Source of the DNA: Steroidobacteraceae bacterium
GTDB lineage: Bacteria; Chloroflexota; Limnocylindria; QHBO01
NCBI GenBank assembly: GCA_025935615.1
Contig: JAICUY010000001.1
Location: forward strand, 688 to 64,687
Direction: 5' to 3'
Length of the DNA: 64,000 nucleotides
In this document: piece by piece, positions 9,862 through 21,615 of the stretch
How the letters are laid out: every line of letters begins with the position of its first letter
Numbering within the stretch: the first letter of the stretch is position 1
Translations under genes and position numbers: made by a program
The notes under the pieces: model-generated
Told to the model about the DNA's origin: nothing
The model's input: the letters and a program-made list of their open reading frames with translations, nothing else
Databases searched by the model: none

Positions 9862-11283
9862 ATGACCGATGCGCTGCCCGAGGTGCGGCTCTACAACTCG
9901 CTGACCAGATCGGTCGAGAGGCTGCGGCCGCTCGAACCGGGACGGGTCTCGATCTACACCTGCGGCAGCACGGTGTACCGCTACGCTCATATCGGCAACC
10001 TGCGGACCTACCTGTTCGGCGATCTCCTGCATCGGACGCTCGAGTACCTCGGCTACGAGGTGCGCTACGTGAAGAACATCACCGACGTCGGGCACATGCG
10101 CGACGACACGCCGGACCAGGACCGCATGGAGCTGGCGGCCGAAACCGAGGGCCGATCGCCGTCCGAGATCGCGCAGTTCTACACCGATGCCTGGCTCACC
10201 GACGAGCGGCTGCTCAACATCCTGCCGGCCGACGTCATGCCGCGTGCCACCGAGCACGTCCCGCAGATGCTCGAGCTGACCGCGACGCTGCTCGACAAGG
10301 GGCTGGCCTACGAGGTCGACGGCACGGTCTATTACGACGTCAGCGCCTTCGCGGGCTACGGCAAGCTGTCGGGGCAGCGGCTGGAGGAGATGAAGCCCGG
10401 GCATCGTGTCGACGTCGAGTCCGACAAGCGCGATCCGGAGGACTTCGCGCTGTGGAAGGCAGCCGGCGAGCATCGGCTCATGAAATGGCCATCACCCTGG
10501 GGCGATGGCTTCCCGGGATGGCACATTGAGTGCTCGGCCATGTCGATGCACTACCTCGGCGACCGCTTCGACGTCCACACCGGCGGGATCGATCTCAAGT
10601 TCCCCCACCACGAGGATGAGATCGCGCAATCCGAGGGCGCGCTCGGCCACCAGGTCGTGAGCATCTGGATGCACGGCGAGTTCCTCACCCTGGCCGACGC
10701 CAAGATGGCGAAATCCGCCGGCAACGTCATCCGCGTCGCCGATCTGCCGTCGAAGGGCTTTGAGCCGCTCGCCTTCCGCTACCTGGCGCTGACGGCACAC
10801 TACCGCTCGAAGCTCGACTTCACCGAGAGGGCCATGCACGCCGCGGCCTCGGCGCTCCGGCGCCTGCGGCGAGCGGTCGCGGAAGGAGCATCCGAGCGGA
10901 CCGATGCGGACCTCTCCGCGGCGCCGCTGGCTGGCTATCGCGATCGTTTCGTGGCTGCCGTCTCGGAGGACCTCGGCCTGCCGGCGGCGTTGGCGGTCGC
11001 CCATGCCGTGGCGAGCGACGGCGACCTGACGCCGCCGCAGCGACGTGTGCTGCTGCTCGATTTCGATCGGGTGCTCGGATTGTCGCTGGACGCCCCGGTC
11101 GGCGGGGAGGTGGAGCTGCCGGAGGGCGCCGCCGCGCTGCTCGCCCGTCGGGCCGAGGCGCGCGAGGCACGCGATTTCGCGACCTCCGATGCGTTGCGCG
11201 ACGAGCTGGCGGCGCTCGGCGTCGAGGTCCGCGATACCCGCGACGGCCAGGTCACCACGGTCGCCGGCACCCGGTCCGGATGA
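9862..11283 (+). CDS. cysS: Cysteine--tRNA ligase
   Basis: HIGH-type motif YAHIGNLRTY, KMSKS-type motif KMAKSAGN, and WPSPWGDGFPGWHIECSAM. Confidence 0.95.
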   Translation: MTDALPEVRLYNSLTRSVERLRPLEPGRVSIYTCGSTVYRYAHIGNLRTYLFGDLLHRTLEYLGYEVRYVKNITDVGHMRDDTPDQDRMELAAETEGRSPSEIAQFYTDAWLTDERLLNILPADVMPRATEHVPQMLELTATLLDKGLAYEVDGTVYYDVSAFAGYGKLSGQRLEEMKPGHRVDVESDKRDPEDFALWKAAGEHRLMKWPSPWGDGFPGWHIECSAMSMHYLGDRFDVHTGGIDLKFPHHEDEIAQSEGALGHQVVSIWMHGEFLTLADAKMAKSAGNVIRVADLPSKGFEPLAFRYLALTAHYRSKLDFTERAMHAAASALRRLRRAVAEGASERTDADLSAAPLAGYRDRFVAAVSEDLGLPAALAVAHAVASDGDLTPPQRRVLLLDFDRVLGLSLDAPVGGEVELPEGAAALLARRAEAREARDFATSDALRDELAALGVEVRDTRDGQVTTVAGTRSG

Positions 11284-11417: not shown

Positions 11418-11564
11418 ATGCAGATCGAGTACGAGGCGCCCCGGATCGAAGATCTGGGTTCCATCGCCGATCACACATTCGACAACCCGGGCAAGGGCGA
11501 CAAGTCGTCCGAGCCCATGGAGACTGACAAGTTCGGCGAGTATTCGCATCCCTTCGCCAGCTGA
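11418..11564 (+). CDS. Lasso peptide precursor (A peptide), 48 aa: MQIEYEAPRIEDLGSIADHTF / DNPGKGDKSSEPMETDKFGEYSHPFAS
   Basis: Not in the ORF track (<60 aa). AGGAGA lies 9 nt upstream of the ATG. The leader fits YxxPxLx3Gx5Tx (Y-17, P-14, I-12, G-8, T-2). Located immediately upstream of the lasso cyclase, RRE and the rest of the cluster. The translation was cross-checked against the overlapping track frames. Confidence 0.8.
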   Translation: MQIEYEAPRIEDLGSIADHTFDNPGKGDKSSEPMETDKFGEYSHPFAS

Positions 11565-11650: not shown

Positions 11651-13429
11651 GTGGCTGCCATCGCGCTGGCCCATGGCCGGCAGTCAGCTCCCGCCGCGAG
11701 CGTGGTCGAGGCGATGCTCGCCGCCGCGCCGCACCGCGGCCCGACGCACCAGACCTTGATCCATGGCTCCACGGTGCTCGGAATCAGCCGCGGCGAGGAC
11801 GACGAGGACGCCTGTCTCGGGACTGACCGCGGCTTCGCGATCTGCTTCGCCGGTTCGTTCGACAACATGGCCGATCTCGGCATCGAGCTGGGGCTCGACG
11901 ACGGAAGCCGAACCGGGACCGTCGCCGACGTCCTGGGTGTCCTGGCCGAAGGCTACCGCCGCTTCCGCGAGGAGCTGCCGAACCGGATGCGCGGCGTCTA
12001 CGCCGTCGCCATCAGCGACGGCCAACGCGTGCTGTGCTTCCGCGACCACGTCGGCTACCGACCACTCTTCTATCGCTTCGACACGGACGCGCTGTACGCG
12101 GCCAGTGAAGCCAAGCAGGTCATCGCCGGTGCAGGCATCCCGCGTCAGCCGGACCTCGACGTGGTGGAGGCGATCTATTTCCGGACATATGACGACGCGA
12201 CGCCGGCGGCGCTGCGCGGCGTACGGCGGCTGCCCAAGGCGACCAGCCTGTCGCTTGCCGGGGGTCAACCGCGGCTGCAACGGTACTGGCATCCCGAACG
12301 GCTGCTCGAGACGGCCACCTTCAGCCGCGCCGAGCTGAAGGAACGATTCACGTCGCTCATGGAGCAGGCCGTCGGTCGCAGCCTCTCGCGGCCGGCCGCC
12401 ATCTCGCTCAGCGGCGGGATCGACTCTCCGGCGGTTGCCGCATTCGCCGCACCGATCCATCGCCACCGCTTCGGTCGCCCGCTGCAGGCCTTGTCCGTCG
12501 TGTACCCGCGCCATCCCTCGGTCGACGAGAGCAGCTACGTCAAGATCGTCACCGCTGCGCTCGATATCCCACTGCATGCCTACGAGCAGACGGCGAACGC
12601 CGTCGCCGATCTGCGGCGCTGGACCGCATTGGCCGATACGCCGTATCCGGCCGCGGCCCTGGCCCAATACGAGGAGGACTACCTCCGCGCCCGGGCTTTG
12701 GACGCCCGCGTCCTGCTGACCGGGGAGCACGCCGAATTCGTGATGGGCATGCAATGGCACGTCCTCGACCACCTGCTGACGCACCGCCGCTGGACCCCCG
12801 CGGCGCGGCAGCTGCGCGAGCGGCGCGGCCGCGGTGCATCGTGGATTGGCCTGACCCGCCTGGTGTTGCGCTCGCTGGCCTCGGACCGCGTGATGGCCGC
12901 GCGCAACCGCTTCGCTGCCCGACCGGCCAGCGTTCCGGCCTGGATCGACCGGAGCCGGCTCGTTCCCGACGATCCCGTCTCGGCGCGCGAACGATGGCGC
13001 GACTCGCAATTGACCGGCTTCGTCGGCCCCGGCATCTCACTCGAAGCGGAGGAGGTCTGCCAGCAGGTCTGCGGCGTGCGATCGCGCAAGCCGTGGACCG
13101 ATATCGACCTCTGGGAGTTCTTCCTCAGCCTGCCGGCCGAGATGAAGTTCCCCGACCTGCGGGCGAAGGGCCTGGTGCGCGACCTGCTCCGCGGACGCGT
13201 GCCGGATGAAATCCTCGACCGGCGCGACAAGACGGTCTTCGATGCAGCCGCGATGGCCGACGTCGACTACGCCGCGCTGCGCGGCCTGCTGATCGATTCG
13301 CCGCACCGGATCAGCGGCGTCGATTATCGGCGACTGGCCGCGGCGCTCGACGCCGAGCGACTGACCCCGATCGAGTACCGCTGGGCGCGGAACCTCGCCA
13401 ACGTCCACGCATTCCTGTCACAGTGGTGA
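11651..13429 (+). CDS. Lasso peptide macrolactam synthetase (C protein; asparagine synthetase B-like)
   Basis: 592 aa. PP-loop-type LSGGIDSPAVAAFA. AsnB-like architecture. Sits between the precursor and the PqqD-like gene. Confidence 0.85.
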   Translation: MAAIALAHGRQSAPAASVVEAMLAAAPHRGPTHQTLIHGSTVLGISRGEDDEDACLGTDRGFAICFAGSFDNMADLGIELGLDDGSRTGTVADVLGVLAEGYRRFREELPNRMRGVYAVAISDGQRVLCFRDHVGYRPLFYRFDTDALYAASEAKQVIAGAGIPRQPDLDVVEAIYFRTYDDATPAALRGVRRLPKATSLSLAGGQPRLQRYWHPERLLETATFSRAELKERFTSLMEQAVGRSLSRPAAISLSGGIDSPAVAAFAAPIHRHRFGRPLQALSVVYPRHPSVDESSYVKIVTAALDIPLHAYEQTANAVADLRRWTALADTPYPAAALAQYEEDYLRARALDARVLLTGEHAEFVMGMQWHVLDHLLTHRRWTPAARQLRERRGRGASWIGLTRLVLRSLASDRVMAARNRFAARPASVPAWIDRSRLVPDDPVSARERWRDSQLTGFVGPGISLEAEEVCQQVCGVRSRKPWTDIDLWEFFLSLPAEMKFPDLRAKGLVRDLLRGRVPDEILDRRDKTVFDAAAMADVDYAALRGLLIDSPHRISGVDYRRLAAALDAERLTPIEYRWARNLANVHAFLSQW

Positions 13430-13722
13430 ACGTGGAGATCACGGTCGAATCGGTCGTCCAGCGCAACCCGCAGGTCGTCGGCCGCGCCCTGGCGCCGGGC
13501 GAGGGGGGCGTCCTGCTCCACCTCTCGACCGCGGCCTACCATCGGGTGAACCCGGTGGGACTGGCGATCTGGGACCTCCTCGAGCATCCGCGCCGCGTCG
13601 ACGACGTCATCACCGCGCTGCGCGAAACCGTGGCGAATGCGCCGGCTGCGCTCGACCGCGACGTGCTCACCTTCCTGCAGTCGGTGGTGGATCGTGACCT
13701 CGTGCTCGTGGAAGAGGCCTAA
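13423..13722 (+). CDS. PqqD-like RiPP recognition element (lasso B1 protein)
   Basis: 99 aa. PqqD-family pattern: GGVLLHLSTAAYHRVNPVGLAIWDLLEHPRRVDDVITAL...DVLTFLQSVVDRDLV. Overlaps the cyclase stop by 7 nt. Confidence 0.8.
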   Translation: MVNVEITVESVVQRNPQVVGRALAPGEGGVLLHLSTAAYHRVNPVGLAIWDLLEHPRRVDDVITALRETVANAPAALDRDVLTFLQSVVDRDLVLVEEA

Positions 13723-15038
13723 GCTCGCGAGCGGCCATCAAAGCGCGCTACGCCGATGACGTGCCCGTCCAGCGCGATTCCCTCGACTGAGCGGTAGCCT
13801 GACTCGACCATCTCGTTCGCAAGCGCGTCCCACTGGTCCGGGAGCATCTGAAGCACGACCGCAGCGCCGGGCCGCAGGAACGGCCGGGCGTCGCGAATGA
13901 GCTGCCGCTGGAGGCCGAGGCCATCAGCGCCCCTTCCCTCGACCGTTGCGGCAGGCACCGATCCGAGCGCCACCCGGCGGGTCGAGGGAACGTACGGGAG
14001 GTTCGCGATCAGGCAGTCGACCGGTCCGATGCCCGACGGATCCATTCCGGCCAGCAACGCTCCACGCTCGAAGCGCACCGCCAGGCCGAGTCGGGCTGCG
14101 TTCCTGCTCGCGGCGCGCACGGCTCGACCGGATCGATCGGTGCCGACCACCGTTGCCTGCGGCAGGCGCGCCGCAATCCCGAGCGCGATGGCACCGCAGC
14201 CGGTTCCGATTTCGAGCAGCAGCGGCCGCTCGACCGCCTCGATGTGCCGCAGCGCGACATCGATGACCACGTCGGCCGACGCGGTCGGCACGAACACGCC
14301 GGGCGGCACGATCACCTCGATTCCGGCCAGTCGGACGCGAACGCCGAGATCGCCGTACGCCGGCGCGCCGGCCAGCAGGCGCCGCAGCCTCGCCGGACGA
14401 GCCCACCGCTGGAACCCCGAGGCGATCGTCCATGCCGGGCCCAGCGCTCCACCGAAGATCGGACCTGGTCCCGGCCGATCCGGGCCGCCGAGAGCGCGTC
14501 GCGCGCGATCCAGCGCCGCATGCACGCCGCTCTCGACGGCAATGCGCCGGGCCGCGCGCCAGTCGAGCGTGCCCGCCATCACACGCAGCCGCTCCCAATC
14601 CGCCTCGTGTCCCCGTCCTGGACGGCACGACTGCACGGCCAGATGCACCGCGAGCGCTTCGGGATCGGGCGTGCGCAGTGGACCGTCTCCGCCAGACGCC
14701 AACAAGCGCCCGGCGAGCGCGTCGAGGCTCGCCGGCGGAAATGGGGCGGCCGGCAGGCCCCAGAGCAGATCGAGGTACTGGCCCGTATCGGTCCAGTAGG
14801 TTCGGCCAGGCTGGAGCCGGCCAAGGCCGCGCCGGACCCACGAGTAGCGCCAATCGAGCAACTCGACGGCGGTCGTCGCCGCGGCGCGGCTGTCGCGCGC
14901 GACCAGCACCTGCATCGGTCGATAGCCCGCCTGCGCAGTCGCCGGCAGTGCCGTGCCGGTCAGCACAACGCCCGACAGCCCGCCCGCTCCGAATCCTTCG
15001 GCGATGGAGTCCTGGTCGAGCCCGCGCATCGCCGGCAC
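13719..15038 (-). CDS. Fusion protein: N-terminal degenerate nucleotidyltransferase-like (PF14907-like) domain plus C-terminal HemK/PrmC-like class I SAM methyltransferase
   Basis: C-terminal half has VFVPTASADVVIDVAL, SAM motif LLEIGTGCGAIALGIA, VVGTDRS and motif IV ANLPYVP (an NPPY variant). The N-terminal half aligns by eye to the 18462-19586 protein (YLDLLWGL vs PLDLHWSL; ALAVHLAVQ vs RLIHLAVHG; LDWRAARRIA vs VDWSAVAERS). GTG start lies 4 nt after the B2 stop. Confidence 0.7.
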   Translation of the reverse strand: MPAMRGLDQDSIAEGFGAGGLSGVVLTGTALPATAQAGYRPMQVLVARDSRAAATTAVELLDWRYSWVRRGLGRLQPGRTYWTDTGQYLDLLWGLPAAPFPPASLDALAGRLLASGGDGPLRTPDPEALAVHLAVQSCRPGRGHEADWERLRVMAGTLDWRAARRIAVESGVHAALDRARRALGGPDRPGPGPIFGGALGPAWTIASGFQRWARPARLRRLLAGAPAYGDLGVRVRLAGIEVIVPPGVFVPTASADVVIDVALRHIEAVERPLLLEIGTGCGAIALGIAARLPQATVVGTDRSGRAVRAASRNAARLGLAVRFERGALLAGMDPSGIGPVDCLIANLPYVPSTRRVALGSVPAATVEGRGADGLGLQRQLIRDARPFLRPGAAVVLQMLPDQWDALANEMVESGYRSVEGIALDGHVIGVARFDGRSRA

Positions 15039-15042
15039 GGGG

Positions 15043-15510
15043 CTATGCCGGACGGGGGTAGCGGGTCATCTCCTCGTAGCCGGCGCCACCAGGCGGCGGT
15101 CCGATGTCGCGGCCGTCGAGGAGGACCCAGGCGTGTGCATCGGGCGATGCGGCGCGGTGATGGAGACCAATGACCAGCTCGGCGGCGTCACCCTGCGCCC
15201 GCAACATCCGGTAGAGCACCAGCGCCCGCACCAGGCAACGCGGCTGCCAGGGACCGATGCGCAGGCCGCGGGTGACGGCGCGGCTCAGCAGCGCCAACGG
15301 GACGCGCTGGCGACTGGTGCCCGGCGGCGCCGATGCGACCGCCTGCAACGGCTGACGGCGCAACGCAACAGCCACGCGTGCGGCGCTGACCCAGACCCTC
15401 ACCAGCAGCCGCGCCTGCTCGCCACGCGAGGCAGGCTTCATGGCCGGCCCGGTCGGCGCGGGGGTCGATGACATGCGCGGATAGTGCCGCACGCGGCTCG
15501 CGCCCGCCAC
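15043..15510 (-). CDS. Lasso leader peptidase (B2 protein; transglutaminase-like Cys protease)
   Basis: CLVRALVLYRMLRAQG...ELVIGL...AHAWVLLDGRDIG matches the B2 Cys...His core pattern. The start may be 15510 or the internal Met at 15474. Confidence 0.8.
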   Translation of the reverse strand: MAGASRVRHYPRMSSTPAPTGPAMKPASRGEQARLLVRVWVSAARVAVALRRQPLQAVASAPPGTSRQRVPLALLSRAVTRGLRIGPWQPRCLVRALVLYRMLRAQGDAAELVIGLHHRAASPDAHAWVLLDGRDIGPPPGGAGYEEMTRYPRPA

Positions 15511-15519
15511 GGGCGCGGG

Positions 15520-16446
15520 TCAGCGCACGTTCGCGACCAGTCGTTCGAGCGCATCGATCACCTCCTGCATGCGGGCCATGCTGAGCGGCCGGTGGAGGTC
15601 GTAGGCCGGAACGCGAGACGTCAGGTCGACCACGCGCGCGAAGCAGGAACGGCGCGAGTCGTCCGTCGGAAGACGGAAGCTGAGCGCGAAGAGGTCCCGT
15701 GTCGCGCCGGCGGCATCCAGCGGGCGGATGCCGAGCTGATCGGCCCGCCGCAGCAGGACGATGGCGCGCAGCGGGACCGGCCGTCCGTCGCCCCGTCGCG
15801 CCTGGTCGAAGATTATCGCCTGCCGGCCAGCGTCCGACGAGCCTTCCGCATGACGTGCGCCCGGCAGCCGCAGAAGCTGCGCAACGTCCGGCCGCAGGCG
15901 AACCGCCGCCGGTCCGGGGTACAGGGCCGGCTCGGCACCAAGTGCGCAGCGCACCGTGTCTTCGGCCAGCAGCCGGTGGCCGACGGCGGCCAGCCCCGCA
16001 GCCAGGGTCGTCTTGCCGTGCATGCTCGGTCCTGCCAGCAGCAGCGCGCTGCCGCCGATCTCGACCGCCGAGGCGTGGACCGACAGGTCGCCGGCATGCA
16101 GCGCGCACAACGCGGCCGGGATGCCAAGCAGGCGCAACTCGCGTCGCAACGGCTCGGCGCCGCCTTCGACCCGGATCCGCGCGTCATCGGGTGCCACTTC
16201 GTAGCGACCGACGTCGCTTGCCCAGAAGACGTACCTGGTGCCCTGCCGGTGCAGCGTGGCGTGGAACGGGTTGTCCGGCCGCGCATGCCACACCGCGATG
16301 GGCTCGCCGCTGGGCGGCGGCAGATTCGCCTCCTCGACGAGGAGCGGCGTTTCGCCGGAATCGGAGCGCAGCGTCTGGAACGGCAGCGACGATCGCAGCC
16401 CGAAGCCGACGGCGCTGCCGACGACGTCGCGAGAGGGACCTGGCAT
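15520..16446 (-). CDS. HPr kinase/phosphorylase-like protein kinase (lasso precursor Ser kinase type)
   Basis: HASAVEIGGSALLLAGPSMHGKTTLAAGL (HprK C-terminal domain with P-loop). The ATG lies 5 nt after the permease stop. The N-terminal 256 aa of track ORF 15520-17217 are an out-of-frame overlap of the permease gene. Confidence 0.72.
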   Translation of the reverse strand: MPGPSRDVVGSAVGFGLRSSLPFQTLRSDSGETPLLVEEANLPPPSGEPIAVWHARPDNPFHATLHRQGTRYVFWASDVGRYEVAPDDARIRVEGGAEPLRRELRLLGIPAALCALHAGDLSVHASAVEIGGSALLLAGPSMHGKTTLAAGLAAVGHRLLAEDTVRCALGAEPALYPGPAAVRLRPDVAQLLRLPGARHAEGSSDAGRQAIIFDQARRGDGRPVPLRAIVLLRRADQLGIRPLDAAGATRDLFALSFRLPTDDSRRSCFARVVDLTSRVPAYDLHRPLSMARMQEVIDALERLVANVR

Positions 16447-16451
16447 GCCGC

Positions 16452-17285
16452 TCAGTACTGCGACAGGGAGCCGTCGGTCTGGGCGAAGCGGATGGCCCGG
16501 CCGCAGGCCCACAGCCCCAGCGGCACCAGCAGCACGCCGAGCGCAGCGAGCGCGGCGAAGTGCGGCCACAGGGTGGCAAATCCTTCCCCACTCAGCGTCG
16601 AACGCCGCATCAGCTCGAGGGCGTGCGTCAGCGGCAGAAGCTGCGCGAGCGCCTGCAGCCAGACGGGGAGCACGCTGACGGGGTAGAAGACCCCGGCCAA
16701 CAGCACCGACGCCATGCCGAGCAGCAGGCTGATGGGGTTGCCCTGCTTGACGACGATCACCACGCTTGCTGCGACGAGACCCATCCCGTTGAAGGCGACC
16801 ACCGACAGCGCCAGCGCCGCCAGCGCGACCGGCACGTTGGCGCTGCCGAGGTCGAGCCCGAGCGCCAGGCCGACCACGGCGTAGACGAGCAGCGTGACGA
16901 CTGCCATGGCGTGCGCCCAGAGCGAGGCACCGACCAGCAGGACCCATAACCGATTCGGGCTGAGCAGCATGAGCTCCAGCGTTCCCATCAGCTGACCTTC
17001 GCGGACCCGGGAGCTGATGCCCGACAGGCCCAGCGCCAGCAGGTTGGACAGCGCAATGCCGACAAGCGCGAAGGCAAAGTAGTTGCCGCCGTAGGCACTC
17101 AGGTTGCCACCGAGCTGGCCGCCGAAGGCGCGGCCCAGGAAATAGACGCTCAGCACGCTGGCCAGCGACCCGCCGGTCGACAGCAGGAAGCCCATTCGAT
17201 AGCTGGTGGCCGTCCACATGTCGCGAATGAATGTCGCCCCGAGCACGCGCGGCCAGCCGTCCATCACCCGCTCAAGCATCGGCAT
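16452..17285 (-). CDS. ABC-2 type transporter permease
   Basis: 277 aa with about 6 TM segments. Overlaps the ATPase gene end by 14 nt. Confidence 0.8.
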   Translation of the reverse strand: MPMLERVMDGWPRVLGATFIRDMWTATSYRMGFLLSTGGSLASVLSVYFLGRAFGGQLGGNLSAYGGNYFAFALVGIALSNLLALGLSGISSRVREGQLMGTLELMLLSPNRLWVLLVGASLWAHAMAVVTLLVYAVVGLALGLDLGSANVPVALAALALSVVAFNGMGLVAASVVIVVKQGNPISLLLGMASVLLAGVFYPVSVLPVWLQALAQLLPLTHALELMRRSTLSGEGFATLWPHFAALAALGVLLVPLGLWACGRAIRFAQTDGSLSQY

Positions 17286-18267
17286 GCACCGCGCGATAGA
17301 CGTCCTCGAGGGTCGGCTCTCGCGTCGTACAGCCCTCGATCCGCAGTCCGCGATCGAGCAGCAGCTGCAGCACGGCGCTCAGGGAGCCGCGGCCACGATC
17401 CAGGCGCACGCTGATGCGCGAGCCGACGGTCGCTGCCGTCACGTCGGCCGCTTCGACGCCCGGCAGATCACACAACGCCGCCCGCACGGGCTCGGTCCGA
17501 CCGTCGACCGCGAGCTCGACGAAGCTCGAGAGTCCCATCCGCGCGCTCAGCTCACTCATACTGCCGACCTCGATCATCGCGCCGCGCCGCATGATCGCGA
17601 TCCGATCGCAGATGGCCTCGGCTTCGGAGAGCGCGTGCGTCGCCAGGAAGACGGTGTATCCGCGCTTCCCGACGATGTGGCTGGTGATGTAGGTGCGCAG
17701 CTCGTCCGCCGCGATCGGATCGAGGGCGCGAGTCGGCTCATCGAGAAACAGGATCTGCGGATCGGTCAGCATGCCGCGCGCGATTCCGAACTTCTGGCGG
17801 GTGCCGGTCGAATAGCTGTCGAAGCGCCGGTCGGCATACTCGCTGACGCCCAGCGTATCCAGCAGCTCGTCGATGCGCCGATCGATCAGGCGGCGCGGCA
17901 CGTGGTACAGCGTCGCGAAGTACCACAGGTTCTGGCGTCCGGTGAGGCGCCAGTAGAAGCTGCGTTCGTCACCACTCACCAGCCCGATCAGCTGCCGGAC
18001 GCGATGCGGCTCGTCCACCACGTCGTGGCCGCCCACCAGCGCACGCCCCGAGGTCGGAAGCAGGGTCGTCGTCAGCATCCGGATCAGCGTCGTCTTTCCC
18101 GCACCGTTCTCGCCGAGCAGACCGAACAGCTCGCCGCGCCGCACACTCAGGTCGACGCCGTCGACGGCGGCGTCGCGTGCCGGCTGACGACCGTAGCGCA
18201 GCAGGTCCCGATAGCCGCTCACACGGCGGAACCGCTTGGTCAGATGCTCCGTTTCGATCGCGTTCAC
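17272..18267 (-). CDS. ABC transporter ATP-binding protein (DrrA/ABC-2 type)
   Basis: Walker A GENGAGKTT, signature YSTGTRQKF, Walker B ILFLDEPT. A GTG at 18267 is preceded by GGAG. The track ORF extends to 18369. Confidence 0.88.
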   Translation of the reverse strand: MNAIETEHLTKRFRRVSGYRDLLRYGRQPARDAAVDGVDLSVRRGELFGLLGENGAGKTTLIRMLTTTLLPTSGRALVGGHDVVDEPHRVRQLIGLVSGDERSFYWRLTGRQNLWYFATLYHVPRRLIDRRIDELLDTLGVSEYADRRFDSYSTGTRQKFGIARGMLTDPQILFLDEPTRALDPIAADELRTYITSHIVGKRGYTVFLATHALSEAEAICDRIAIMRRGAMIEVGSMSELSARMGLSSFVELAVDGRTEPVRAALCDLPGVEAADVTAATVGSRISVRLDRGRGSLSAVLQLLLDRGLRIEGCTTREPTLEDVYRAVHADA

Positions 18268-18461
18268 ACGACGCTCCGCTGGTCCTCGGCTCCCTCCGTT
18301 CGCCGGCACATGATGCCGGGCGGCGCGAAGGGGTGGCAGTATGCATCGCCTAGCGGTCGCGCGCCGCATGACGTTCAGTCGCCGGGAGGCCCACTCTGCC
18401 GTTCCTTCGTCGGTTTTCCGGTCGGCGCCTTCCGGGCACCCGATCCGAGCGCGACGCAGCG

Positions 18462-19586
18462 GTGCGCCTACTGTGCCTCTTGGTGGCGGATGAGGCGCCC
18501 GCGCCGGACACGGTCATGGCGCTGCTCCGCCAGACGACCGTGCCCGCTGTCCTGGCGCTCGCGCGCTACCACGCCGTGGCCGGACTCGCCTACGAGCGCC
18601 TCGATCCAGTGCCGGTGCCTGAGCCGTTGCTTCGCGGCCTGGCAGATCTTCGCGAGCAGGCGGTCCGCCGTCACCTCCTGGTGACCTGGGCGCTCGCCCG
18701 GCTGCAGCCACTCCTCGACGCGTCCTCCGTGGCGTGGTCGGTCGTCAAAGGGCCGGTGCTCGCAGAGCTGTACGCGGCGCCGGGGCGGCGCAGCTATCGC
18801 GATCTCGATCTGCTCGTCGATCCTGCGGGCTTTCCCGACGTCCTCGCACGTCTCCAGGAGGCGGGCGGCGAGCTGCTCGATACCAACTGGCGCGTCCTTC
18901 GTCGTGAGCTGCGTGGCGAGCTCCACCTCGTCCTGTCCGGTGGCGTGCCACTCGACCTGCACTGGTCGCTGATCAACATGTATCGGGCCGATACGGCTAT
19001 CGACACGTCCGAGATCCTGGGACGGCGGGTGGCGGTCGAGCTCGGCGGCGTGCCCGCCTGGAGCCTCGAGCCCAGCGACCGACTCATCCATCTGGCGGTT
19101 CACGGAGCGCTGTCAGGCGCCGACCGGCTGGTGTGGATCAAGGATGTGGACCTCGCCGCTCGTGACGCGGCGGTCGATTGGAGCGCGGTCGCCGAGCGAA
19201 GCCGCCGTTGGAAGGTGGCGCGCCCGGTGGGGCTGATGCTGTACCGCGCCGCACGCACCCTCGAGACGCCGCTGCCCCGTGGTCTCGCGGACAGCCTGCT
19301 GGGGCGCCGCTACCGCCGTGTCGCCGACCTCATCGACCGATACTCGCCCTGGCAGCAGGCGCTCGGCAGGGTGACGACGCCGAGCCTGCTGCTGGCGCGC
19401 AGCAGCGGCCAGGGCCCGGTCGGGACGATCGGCTGGCTCGCGCGACGGACGGTTCGCAATCTCGACCCGCGCGAGCCGGCCGCCTCGTCGGCGTTCACGC
19501 CAGCCGGCAGCGACGACGACCGCCGCGCCTACCTAGCGGCGGTCGCCGACGTGGCCAATCCTGCTCGGCGCTCGGTCAGGGAGTGA
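18462..19586 (+). CDS. Nucleotidyltransferase-family protein (uncharacterised NTP_transf_5 / PF14907 type)
   Basis: YRDLDLLVDPAGF (DxD) and LDLHWSL pattern. GTG start. Divergent from the ABC/kinase operon. Confidence 0.68.
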   Translation: MRLLCLLVADEAPAPDTVMALLRQTTVPAVLALARYHAVAGLAYERLDPVPVPEPLLRGLADLREQAVRRHLLVTWALARLQPLLDASSVAWSVVKGPVLAELYAAPGRRSYRDLDLLVDPAGFPDVLARLQEAGGELLDTNWRVLRRELRGELHLVLSGGVPLDLHWSLINMYRADTAIDTSEILGRRVAVELGGVPAWSLEPSDRLIHLAVHGALSGADRLVWIKDVDLAARDAAVDWSAVAERSRRWKVARPVGLMLYRAARTLETPLPRGLADSLLGRRYRRVADLIDRYSPWQQALGRVTTPSLLLARSSGQGPVGTIGWLARRTVRNLDPREPAASSAFTPAGSDDDRRAYLAAVADVANPARRSVRE

Positions 19587-21615
19587 CGGCCAGCTGATCC
19601 CAGGTCGCGGGAAAGACCGGCGAATTCAGACCCTGCGAGGTGGCGATGATGCCCGCGGCCAGCGGCCGGCCGTCGAGCCACGAGGCCGGGACCGTGCGCC
19701 GGGCGTCGTTGCCGCCGAAGTCACGCCAGTGATCGCCACCGTCGAGCGAGTACTTCGGCACATACGTGTTCGTCGCCGTCTTGACCGCGATGCGCAGATC
19801 GACACACGCCGCACCCGCGATGTCCGGGTCGGCGCGGCGGCTGAGCCCACGGCCCGTCCCCCTGACCTCGCGGACGTCATGGACCGACGAGGTATCACCC
19901 TTCACGTCGACCACGGCCTTGATGTAGTCGTCCTGCTGGCCGAGCCCGAAGAACACGCCCACCGCCTGGTAGGGCACGTCCGGATACGGTGAGCACACGC
20001 GACCCCGCACGAAGAAGTTCGTGCCATTCGGGACGAAGGCGCGCTGGAAGGCATAGCGCTGCCGATTCTCATGATCGATGGCATCGCCCTCCGGGACCGC
20101 ATTGATGGTGAGCCTGCCACCGCTGACATCGACGTTGGCGGCGTCGTACAGCGACGTGTACGGCCCATTGGCGTTGTACATCACGCCGTCGAAGCCGAGG
20201 TCCTGGAGCAGCGTGGCGTCGCTGACCGGTCCGTCGAAGTCGAGCGTGAACGAAGCCGCGGCTCCGCTGCCATTGGCCGGATCGAGTGCGAAGGCATCGC
20301 AACCGTCGCTGATGCCATCGCCATCGTGATCGCCGGCCATCGCCACAGTGACCGATACGGTGGCGGTGTCCGTCCCGCTGCGCCCGTCACCCACACGGTA
20401 GGTCAGCGTATCCGGGCCGGTGTACGAAGCGTCAGGACGGTAGCTGATGGCCCGGCCGTTGCGGACGATCGACGCCGTTCCATGACCCGGCTGGTTGGTG
20501 ATGCTCGTCATGCTCAGGTGATCGCCATCCGGATCGCTATCGTTGCGCAGCACCCAGAACAGGCGACTGCAGTCCTCGGCCACGGACATGGTGTCCGCCG
20601 CGGCAATCGGCGCGTGGTCACCGAGCGCCCGCGCCACCGCCGACGAAACCTGATCGGTCCCGCCGATGACGATGATCTTTGTCGGCGTCAGCCGCAGGAT
20701 TTCGCGCCGGGTGCTGGGCGGGATCGAGTCATGCTTGACGAGCAGCACCGGGCCCTGGCCCTTGGTGGCAGTCCCCGCGCCCATCGCATACGGCAGCGCC
20801 GTGCCGCTCACCACCCAGACGGTGGAGACCCGCGAAGTGAAGTGACGCCGACTGGTCTTGGCAACCGTCGAGTATTGCGTTGGGCCGGACTCGCGCCGCA
20901 CGGTGGCGATGGTGGCCAGCCGATCCGCGACGGCCGCCGAGATGACATCCGTGCCGCCGGCGATGATGATGCGATCGGGGTTGAGCCGGCGAAGCTCCGT
21001 AGCGGTCGACGCCGGTAGGCTGCCCGCGCGAGAGAACAGGATCGGTCCGCGCCCGTGGGCCGCGGGTGCGGCTCCCAGTGCCCAGGCGGCCTTGTTCGGG
21101 TTGGCGATGTACGCCATCTTGGCGCCCGCGTTGAATCGCGCCTGACTGACGTCAACCGCCGTGCCGTAGCGCGAATGGCCAGTGCGCCGCACGACCGGCG
21201 CGATCGCCCGCAGAGAGCGCCGGACGGCGGTTGACACCTGTCCGGCCGGACCGACGATCACGATGCGGTCGGGCCGCAGGCGCTCGAGCTCGTTGCGCGT
21301 CACGCTCGGAACGTGATCTCGCTTCACCAGCAGGACCGGTCCATGCTTGACCGCGGCAGCCGCCGCGACGAGTCCCTCGGCGGGACGATCACCGTTGACC
21401 ACGTAGACGACCGATACTCCGGCCGCGAAATGCAGCCGACTGACCCGCGCCGCGGTCGAGTACCGATTCGACCCGGCCTCGCGGATGTAGGTCGACGCGG
21501 CAACCGGCGCCGCGGATCGAAATGCGGGTGCGATCGAGGCTCCGGCGATAAGAAGGCCGGACATCAGACCAACGAAAACGGGCCGCACTGAACGGCCAAT
21601 GAGCAGGCTGGGCAC
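19576..21615 (-). CDS. Secreted multidomain surface protein: signal peptide, 3-4 cell-wall-binding-2 (CWB2)-like repeats, cadherin/Ig-like domain, Asp-rich calcium-type motif, C-terminal lectin/LamG-like domain
   Basis: Repeats of the type SGxxRYxTAxxVSxxxF...VVNG...VLL...P..T..EL.RL.P.RIxIxGG...VS. Also VLRNDSDPDGDHL and DHDGDGISDGCD. Confidence 0.7.
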   Translation of the reverse strand: MPSLLIGRSVRPVFVGLMSGLLIAGASIAPAFRSAAPVAASTYIREAGSNRYSTAARVSRLHFAAGVSVVYVVNGDRPAEGLVAAAAAVKHGPVLLVKRDHVPSVTRNELERLRPDRIVIVGPAGQVSTAVRRSLRAIAPVVRRTGHSRYGTAVDVSQARFNAGAKMAYIANPNKAAWALGAAPAAHGRGPILFSRAGSLPASTATELRRLNPDRIIIAGGTDVISAAVADRLATIATVRRESGPTQYSTVAKTSRRHFTSRVSTVWVVSGTALPYAMGAGTATKGQGPVLLVKHDSIPPSTRREILRLTPTKIIVIGGTDQVSSAVARALGDHAPIAAADTMSVAEDCSRLFWVLRNDSDPDGDHLSMTSITNQPGHGTASIVRNGRAISYRPDASYTGPDTLTYRVGDGRSGTDTATVSVTVAMAGDHDGDGISDGCDAFALDPANGSGAAASFTLDFDGPVSDATLLQDLGFDGVMYNANGPYTSLYDAANVDVSGGRLTINAVPEGDAIDHENRQRYAFQRAFVPNGTNFFVRGRVCSPYPDVPYQAVGVFFGLGQQDDYIKAVVDVKGDTSSVHDVREVRGTGRGLSRRADPDIAGAACVDLRIAVKTATNTYVPKYSLDGGDHWRDFGGNDARRTVPASWLDGRPLAAGIIATSQGLNSPVFPATWDQLAVTP

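Follow-up and report, generated by a model that had tools for sequence, protein, structure and literature searches.

Methylation of lasso peptides, as treated in reviews of lasso modifications and of the methyltransferases that act on ribosomally made peptides that are modified post-translationally (RiPPs), is O-methylation only, carried out by LasF/StspM and by PIMT-type enzymes. Nucleotidyltransferases (NTases) of the PF14907 (NTP_transf_5) family are among the known tailoring enzymes of lasso peptides, and in some cases are fused to the leader peptidase B2 (PMC8498205). The proteusin Asn N-methyltransferases PoyE and AerE combine a Rossmann core resembling that of PrmC with a distinct N-terminal subdomain for substrate binding; in PrmC itself, many of the contacts with the substrate protein come from the helical N-terminal domain, which touches RF1 (PMC9060474). 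Here we analyzed a 64,000 nt stretch of contig JAICUY010000001.1 (assembly GCA_025935615.1, positions 688 to 64,687, deposited as a Steroidobacteraceae bacterium and placed by GTDB in the Limnocylindria of the Chloroflexota), hereafter called the window. One of its genes, located at 13719-15038 within a lasso-peptide cluster, encodes a degenerate NTase domain joined to a HemK/PrmC-type methyltransferase domain. On balance we lean toward reading this fusion protein as a lasso tailoring N-methyltransferase, in which the pseudo-NTase domain stands in place of the substrate-binding N-domain of PrmC; we infer both the substrate and the acceptor atom, as well as a docking role for the pseudo-NTase domain.

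The open reading frame comprises 439 codons when it starts at the GTG at 15038 and 436 codons from the ATG at 15029, which was the choice of the gene caller; the G+C content of the window is ~69%. The two-domain layout described in the original prediction was confirmed by matches far beyond chance, and AlphaFold2 (AF2) modeled the full-length protein with a predicted local distance difference test (pLDDT) score of 86.8 and a predicted template modeling (pTM) score of 0.84. For the fusion family we used a sample of 24 full-length homologues that show only 40-50% identity.

In the C-terminal half, every element of the PrmC/HemK layout that had been picked out by eye was found, namely VFVPT, EIGTGCG at residues 276-282, VVGTDRS including D301, and ANLPYVP at residues 345-351, and the family profile matches agreed (TIGR03534 PrmC, 5.2e-29; hemK_fam, 4e-21; PF05175 MTS, 3.6e-7; also PF13649 and PF13847). 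A profile built from the 24 homologues retrieved the solved HemK/PrmC structures from the PDB with E ~1e-21, aligning NLPY on NPPY as well as the G-x-DGL loop, and a Foldseek search with the AF2 model of the fusion gave E. coli PrmC (2b3t, 1.2e-14) and T. maritima HemK as the best PDB matches, followed by KMT9/N6AMT1, PrmA and others. PrmC/HemK (TIGR03534; PDB 2B3T, 1NV8) is the best match of this half in both sequence and structure, and the likeness covers the class I Rossmann fold, the GxGxG motif I, the acidic residue after strand 2, NxPY and the G-x-DGL loop. Across the homologues, G278, G280, C281 and G282 of motif I were present in 24/24, the family form being E-x-G-T/S-G-C-G; the Asp or Glu after strand 2 and the A-N-L-P-Y/F stretch were invariant or nearly so. 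Within motif IV, N, L and P were invariant and the fourth residue was Y or F in all 24 relatives. The S-adenosylmethionine (SAM) and NxPY motifs of this domain are intact and under purifying selection. As motif I, the acidic residue and A-N-L-P-Y/F are kept at 40-50% identity, the domain looks like a working enzyme and is probably active, and these similarities support its assignment as a HemK/PrmC-type, N-directed methyltransferase.

The fusion is not an orthologue of PrmC, because all the curated cut-offs were missed by about 2-fold (101.4 versus 199.1 bits for TIGR03534, 75.3 versus 115.5 for hemK_fam and 70.2 versus 248.8 for PrmC_rel_meth) and because the helical PrmC_N domain (PF17827), seen in most stand-alone PrmC-like proteins, was detected in none of the 24 fusion proteins. 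It differs from PrmC in having an NTase-fold domain instead of PrmC_N, in its location in a lasso cluster, a context that speaks for a peptide substrate, and in a target that is probably a peptide Lys, not the Gln of GGQ. The replacement of NPPY by NLPY had been regarded as a chemically meaningful departure; this was not borne out. Among 58 stand-alone PrmC-like proteins, most of which carry PrmC_N, the motif was NLPY in 26, NPPY in 15, NAPY in 15 and NTPY in one, with none in the remaining one, and ANLPYV occurs in proteins named by NCBI as release-factor methyltransferases from one Chloroflexi and one Solirubrobacterales bacterium. As NLPY is common in such proteins, it carries no mechanistic message, and we rejected it as a mark of special chemistry.

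The N-terminal half, taken in the original prediction for a catalytically dead relative of the stand-alone NTase encoded nearby, proved to be a PF14907-type NTase homologue, although the homology is decisive only at the level of families and profile-profile comparison, not for single sequences. The N-terminal half from the window alone gave no match in Pfam, PF14907 included, even at E up to 10 (gathering score 31.2 bits); BLASTP against the neighboring NTase was borderline (E 0.02), and sequence searches of the PDB returned nothing for either the N-terminal half or the stand-alone NTase. Among the full-length fusion homologues, 15 of the 24 matched PF14907 weakly (best E 1.2e-5). When the N-domain family was compared with the family profile of the neighboring NTase, built from 79 relatives, hhalign gave a probability of 97.7% and an E of 1.8e-12 over 205 columns, placing residues 8-214 of the fusion on residues 77-295 of the NTase. 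This alignment pairs YRPMQVLV, YLDLLW and HLAVQSCRPG of the fusion with YRDLDLLV, PLDLHW and HLAVHGALSG of the NTase. The loss of both catalytic Asp residues held throughout the family: both Asp of D-x-D are present in 79/79 NTase relatives and in 0/24 fusion relatives, where T/P/K/Q/S/N and Q/E/R take their places, and the His of LDLHW, kept in 77/79 NTases, is Tyr, Leu, Cys or Ser in 24/24 fusion relatives. The window protein has P-M-Q for D-x-D and D-L-L for [DE]-L-H. Without the two carboxylates and the motif His, the N-domain would be unable to bind the catalytic metals.

The N-domain was also modeled confidently by AF2 (pLDDT 87.6), and this model gave a weak signal of the same fold. The 16 best PDB matches in Foldseek were all NTase-fold proteins, although with weak scores (E 2.5e-3 to 0.08; template modeling (TM) scores 0.19-0.47), and included MenT1, mimivirus poly(A) polymerase, JHP933, ANT(2'')-Ia, LinB, LnuA and CD-NTases. 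The profile comparison revealed NTase homology, with no unrelated fold and no intact catalytic residues. In comparison with stand-alone PF14907 enzymes such as PsmN, the N-domain retains the WR[YF], hD/ELxW and xLAVx motifs and gives a weak NTase-fold signal, but it lacks the first ~76 residues, has lost D-x-D and the His, and is attached to a methyltransferase.

Of 1.84 billion representative proteins searched with the N-domain profile, 117 were retrieved, 83 with an E no higher than 1e-10, and these 117 were sorted by their motifs. Fusions of the N-domain to a methyltransferase with a degenerate DxD accounted for 39 of the 117, and in 14 fusions the triad of D-x-D/E and [DE]-L-H was complete, examples being P0188 (SGDVDLLI, TVDLHW, ANLPYVP) and P0191 (SGDVDVLL, RIDLHW, SNPPYVP). 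Motif IV was broken (HLP[ST] or HLPW) in five fusions, four of which (P0220, P0231, P0250 and P0254) keep an intact DxD. With DxD and DLHW retained and HLPT or HLPS in place of NxPY, these four show the opposite arrangement, in which the NTase is live and the methyltransferase probably dead. P0191 is encoded in a compact lasso cluster (L111, 2116-6799) with B1, B2, C, an HPr-type kinase and a precursor whose predicted core, GPSGSGSKEGIKT, has two Lys, no Asn and no Gln. In a neighbor-joining tree of the N-domain, which has long branches and gives a rough picture only, the intact-DxD proteins stood together and the degenerate ones fell into several groups. As the family includes intact-DxD fusions, P0191 among them in a lasso cluster, the window fusion appears to have arisen by decay of a bifunctional NTase-methyltransferase, in a lineage that has a separate NTase.

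The surroundings of the fusion gene form a split-B lasso-peptide cluster. As proposed, this cluster is of the kinase-plus-NTase kind and comprises A, B1, B2, C, the kinase, an ABC exporter and the NTase. The fusion is embedded in the same set of genes (ABC, kinase, B2, NTase and fusion with B1, C and A) at 7 of 10 genome loci, which span several phyla, and on 4/4 metagenome contigs looked up by protein, and six further fusion clusters were found among metagenome loci anchored on the C gene. These sources include metagenome-assembled genomes (MAGs) labeled Chloroflexi/Chloroflexia, Limnocylindria, Gaiellaceae and Steroidobacteraceae as well as soil metagenome contigs. Two clusters contain two fusion paralogues each (L004, 2333-3649 and 4038-5450; L082, 6-605 and 2657-3985), with a degenerate DxD in every copy that has its N-domain; the end of the contig truncates the first L082 copy, of which only the methyltransferase half is seen. 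Such paired copies could reflect two acceptor sites or stepwise methylation. GT4, GT87 or PMT glycosyltransferase genes are often added in related clusters, which fits the phospho-glycosylation of the pseudomycoidin kinase-plus-PF14907 system (PMC9266682, PMC8498205).

In sister clusters, the slot between B1 and B2 is filled differently. It holds a PMT-family glycosyltransferase gene instead of the fusion in L088 (3901-5241) and L112 (2918-4303) and a non-fusion gene in L099 (3661-5109), and the slot gene of L113 (1-972) is cut. The PMT-type clusters also carry, downstream of the NTase gene, a UbiE-type methyltransferase gene unrelated to the fusion (L088, 11577-12248; L112, 10741-11511; L113, 7492-8247), and a gene for an Rce1-like protease adjoins this recurrent methyltransferase gene.

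The contents of this slot bear on the possibility that the enzyme protects the producer by methylating its own target, for example a ribosomal component or a translation factor, instead of the peptide. Weak similarity to the rRNA and ribosomal-protein methyltransferases PrmA, RsmC and NpmA would be in keeping with such a role, as would the family members found outside lasso clusters and the hint at a translation-related target given by a recurrent cysteinyl-tRNA synthetase (cysS) neighbor. However, the generic methyltransferase matches all lie far below their curated cut-offs, and the gene is inside the biosynthetic operon, its GTG only 4 nt past the B2 stop codon. The PMT glycosyltransferases that occupy the same slot belong to a family modifying protein Ser/Thr, relatives of the protein are fused to an active tailoring-type NTase, and an ABC exporter is already present in the cluster. 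Of the alternatives considered here, protection of the producer seems to us the least probable.

For the lasso precursors, we compared the core registers in the window (11418-11564) and at L001, L003-L005, L017, L025, L081-L085, L088, L090-L104 and L112. The orthologous precursors fall into two groups, ...HTF-[D/N]NPGKGDKS... and ...HTFQTP-GKGTKSxD..., and for both to have Thr at -2 and an Asp at ring position 7 or 8, each group needs its own cleavage point. For the DNPGKGD/NNPGKGD precursors, the sole ring that fits has 7 residues and joins Asp1 or Asn1 to Asp7; for the QTPGKGTKSxD precursors, it is a Gly1-Asp8 ring with the leader extended by QTP. One register for all was rejected: a Gly start leaves the DNPGKG/NNPGKG-type precursors of L025, L082 and L083 without Asp or Glu at ring positions 7-9, and an Asp, Asn or Gln start leaves every QTPGKG-type precursor without a ring Asp or Glu. 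The Gln of the QTPGKG group probably belongs to the leader, since a core beginning at Gly suits both the ring acceptor Asp and the Thr at -2. Asp is not among the residues experimentally observed at ring position 1, and Asn1 was reported as new in 2025 (PMC12670498). Metanodin, with an Asn1 ring and an origin in the Steroidobacterales, was considered as a relative, one related locus being from Steroidobacteraceae, and was rejected as unrelated, its cluster being of the classical ABC-type proteobacterial kind.

Asn2, Lys5, Lys8, Lys17 and His23 had all been listed as candidate methylation sites. Two of these, Lys17 and Lys5, track with the fusion; Asn2 is not conserved, and Lys8 and His23 are kept where the fusion is missing. 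The precursors of the fusion-less clusters L088, L099 and L112 have Thr17 and Glu or Gln at position 5 and keep Lys8, the Gln, His23 and the C-terminal Ser (no precursor was recovered from L113). Lys17 was found in 11/12 distinct precursors encoded with a fusion versus 0/3 encoded without one, where Thr is present in 3/3 (Fisher p 0.009), so that the fusion gene and residue 17 appear to swap together. Given that Lys17 and Lys5 track with the fusion and that Lys8, His23, the Gln and the C-terminal Ser persist without it, the methyl target is most likely Lys17, then Lys5, with amide methylation third. Lysine methylation has precedents among enzymes of this kind. HEMK2/KMT9 and PrmA are, like the fusion, seven-beta-strand enzymes of the HemK/PrmA group, and both methylate Lys; KMT9 structures were among the top structural matches, PrmA matches were seen in 24/24 members of the fusion family, and PDB entries of PrmA with dimethylated L11 were also retrieved. 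They differ in being housekeeping or chromatin enzymes with other partner domains (TRMT112; the PrmA N-domain). The HEMK2/KMT9 precedent is described in PMC10804810.

Methylation of an amide, on Asn2 of DNPGKG or the Gln of QTPGKG, would resemble the action of PrmC on the Gln of GGQ and of PoyE/AerE on proteusin Asn. The best-scoring characterized families are Gln-N5 methyltransferases, an amide-bearing residue always lies within two positions before PGKG, and AerE is among the structural matches. PoyE and AerE were nevertheless distant matches (TM about 0.35), and the fusion differs from them in its unrelated N-domain and in that the target Asn is not conserved in the precursor family: Asn2 is limited to the DNPGKG/NNPGKG group and replaced by Thr in the other. 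The Gln of QTPGKG, besides its probable place in the leader, is retained in clusters without the fusion, and the intact fusion P0191 serves a predicted core devoid of Asn and Gln. We therefore consider amide methylation unlikely, while ranking it first among the alternatives to Lys.

In the mechanism that we favor, the kinase would phosphorylate a precursor Ser, probably the conserved C-terminal one, and the stand-alone NTase would elaborate the Ser phosphate. The pseudo-NTase domain would dock the same tail by its phospho-Ser, perhaps with the adduct, as the ancestor bound it; because the carboxylates for nucleotidyl transfer are lost, this domain could only bind and not catalyze. The methyltransferase domain would then methylate a side-chain amine in the NxPY pocket, that of Lys17 in the DK[FYW]GE[FY]SHP tail or, second, that of Lys5 in PGKG. 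The transfer chemistry would be left to the separate active NTase, the fused copy having decayed to a recognition module. A more specific proposal, which we put forward only tentatively, is that the product would be the first N-methylated lasso peptide, bearing a Lys-N-epsilon mark on Lys17 and possibly on Lys5, and that the pseudo-NTase reads the phospho(-glycosyl) C-terminal Ser, making a reader-writer enzyme out of a decayed bifunctional NTase-methyltransferase.

The acceptor might instead be the group that the NTase adds to the phospho-Ser, either the exocyclic amine of a base or an amino sugar, with the pseudo-NTase binding that group. NxPY/DPPY motifs are also a hallmark of N6-adenine and N4-cytosine methyltransferases. 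Descent from a fusion of an active NTase to a methyltransferase, of which intact bifunctional members occur in lasso clusters, would accord with such an acceptor, as would the frequency of glycosyltransferase genes in related clusters and the addition of hexose to the phospho-Ser of pseudomycoidin by the PF14907 enzyme PsmN (PMC9266682). On the other hand, nucleotidylation in this family is itself only putative, L025 carries a fusion with no NTase within 10 kb, and the correlation with Lys17 and Lys5 would be left unexplained; we place this explanation below amide methylation in likelihood. L004 could not be scored for the NTase, as its contig stops at the ABC ATPase gene, which the NTase gene adjoins in the window.

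Several observations weigh against Lys methylation guided by a docking pseudoenzyme. The closest characterized relatives methylate a Gln amide, not Lys, and the Foldseek signal for the NTase fold is weak even at its best. At three genome loci, L002 and L006 (both Gemmatimonadota MAGs) and L008 (Chloroflexia), the fusion has no lasso genes within reach; these fusions may act in trans or on another substrate. L025 encodes a fusion together with a Thr17 precursor, in a locus full of frameshifts. The three clusters that lack the fusion are near relatives, so that the Lys17 correlation may rest on a single evolutionary event. The docking role itself has a competitor, in which the N-domain is a surface for pairing with the active stand-alone NTase in a pseudoenzyme-enzyme heterodimer, or a mere scaffold. 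Many NTase-fold proteins dimerize, the N-domain is paralogous to the co-encoded NTase, and a stand-alone NTase is found beside the fusion in most complete clusters; the L025 fusion without a nearby NTase speaks against pairing, which we regard as improbable, less so than protection of the producer and more so than methylation of the added group.

The features of the locus are collected in Table 1. The B1 and fusion genes are convergent, and their stop codons overlap. The mechanically called kinase frame, 15520-17217 (565 aa), is over-extended, overlapping the ABC-2 permease gene in another frame; judged from the end of the permease gene, the kinase most likely starts at the ATG at 16446.

Table 1. 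Positions in the window of the fusion gene, its domains and motifs, and the genes of the lasso cluster
Feature	Position	Strand	Evidence
Fusion gene (pseudo-NTase domain + HemK/PrmC-type methyltransferase domain)	13719-15038	minus	ORF, homologues, AF2 model
N-terminal domain, residues 8-214, divergent degenerate PF14907-type NTase fold	14397-15017	minus	hhalign, PF14907 matches of relatives, Foldseek
P-M-Q, codons 41-43, aligned with the metal-binding D-x-D of the NTases	14910-14918	minus	hhalign
C-terminal domain, residues 232-439, SAM-dependent class I methyltransferase of the HemK/PrmC type	13722-14345	minus	TIGR03534, PF05175, PDB HemK/PrmC, Foldseek 2b3t
SAM-binding motif I EIGTGCG, residues 276-282	14193-14213	minus	family alignment
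Motif IV N-L-P-Y, residues 346-349, counterpart of NPPY	13992-14003	minus	aligned on T. maritima HemK NPPY
Lasso precursor, 48 aa, MQIEYEAPRIEDLGSIADHTF / DNPGKGDKSSEPMETDKFGEYSHPFAS, presumed substrate	11418-11564	plus	orthologous precursors at 20 related loci
Codon of core Lys17 (DK[FYW] motif), best candidate methyl acceptor	11529-11531	plus	precursor comparison
Lasso cyclase C, asparagine-synthase-like	11651-13429	plus	PF00733 2.3e-28; NF033535 1.8e-42
B1, PqqD-type leader-recognition element	13423-13722	plus	PF05402 3.5e-13
B2 leader peptidase	15043-15510	minus	PF13471 7.5e-16; NF033537 3.2e-14
HPr-kinase-like lasso kinase	15520-16446	minus	PF07475 1.6e-5; TIGR04352 2.2e-9
ABC-2 permease	16452-17285	minus	profile matches; conserved at related loci
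ABC ATPase	17272-18369	minus	profile matches; conserved at related loci
Stand-alone PF14907 NTase, DLDLLV and LDLHW intact	18462-19586	plus	PF14907 8.7e-44

A cysteinyl-tRNA synthetase gene adjoins the lasso cluster in the window (9862-11283) and at L004 (12389-13579), L083 (13765-15204) and L089 (17880-19360), and a C-terminal remnant of one lies upstream of the precursor gene at L088 (795-878). This recurrent neighbor could reflect conserved synteny or be a target-copy immunity gene. Following the NTase gene, the window encodes a surface protein with CW_binding_2 and Big_9/cadherin-like domains (19576-21615, minus strand), which is also found on the closest related contig, L087 (5174-7216), whose NTase is 78% identical. 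At the three fusion loci apart from lasso genes (L002, 1328-2686; L006, 5199-6471; L008, 9902-11254), the neighboring genes encode an amidohydrolase, an M24 peptidase, LUD-domain proteins, glycoside hydrolases and an MFS/cNMP-binding protein.

The known lasso methyltransferases share with the fusion a role in SAM-dependent tailoring within lasso clusters. LasF/StspM act on the carboxyl group at the C terminus, and PIMT-type enzymes lead to aspartimide, as in lihuanodin and cellulonodin; both are O-methyltransferases of unrelated subfamilies, while the fusion is a member of the N-directed NxPY group with an added pseudoenzyme domain. The earlier statement that lasso methyltransferases are O-directed agrees with the literature searched, in which we found no N-directed or PrmC-like lasso methyltransferase and nothing that joined lasso peptides to PrmC/HemK or to lysine methylation; general N-methylation terms combined with lasso retrieved only reviews or other RiPP classes. 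The fusion is predicted to be a new kind of tailoring enzyme in a known system, as no N-methylation has so far been described in this peptide class.

Lasso peptides are valued scaffolds with a small known tailoring chemistry, to which a HemK-type N-methyltransferase would add both a modification and an enzyme family. The fusions with an intact NTase and an intact methyltransferase, with a dead NTase and an intact methyltransferase, and with an intact NTase and a broken motif IV provide a natural series for the evolution of a pseudoenzyme into a recognition module. Among them, L111 with P0191 is a good minimal system, being a compact cluster with an apparently bifunctional NTase-methyltransferase. 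The locus also flags a multi-phylum family of phospho-tailored, possibly glycosylated lasso peptides with unusual predicted ring residues in uncultured soil Chloroflexota, Gemmatimonadota and Actinomycetota.

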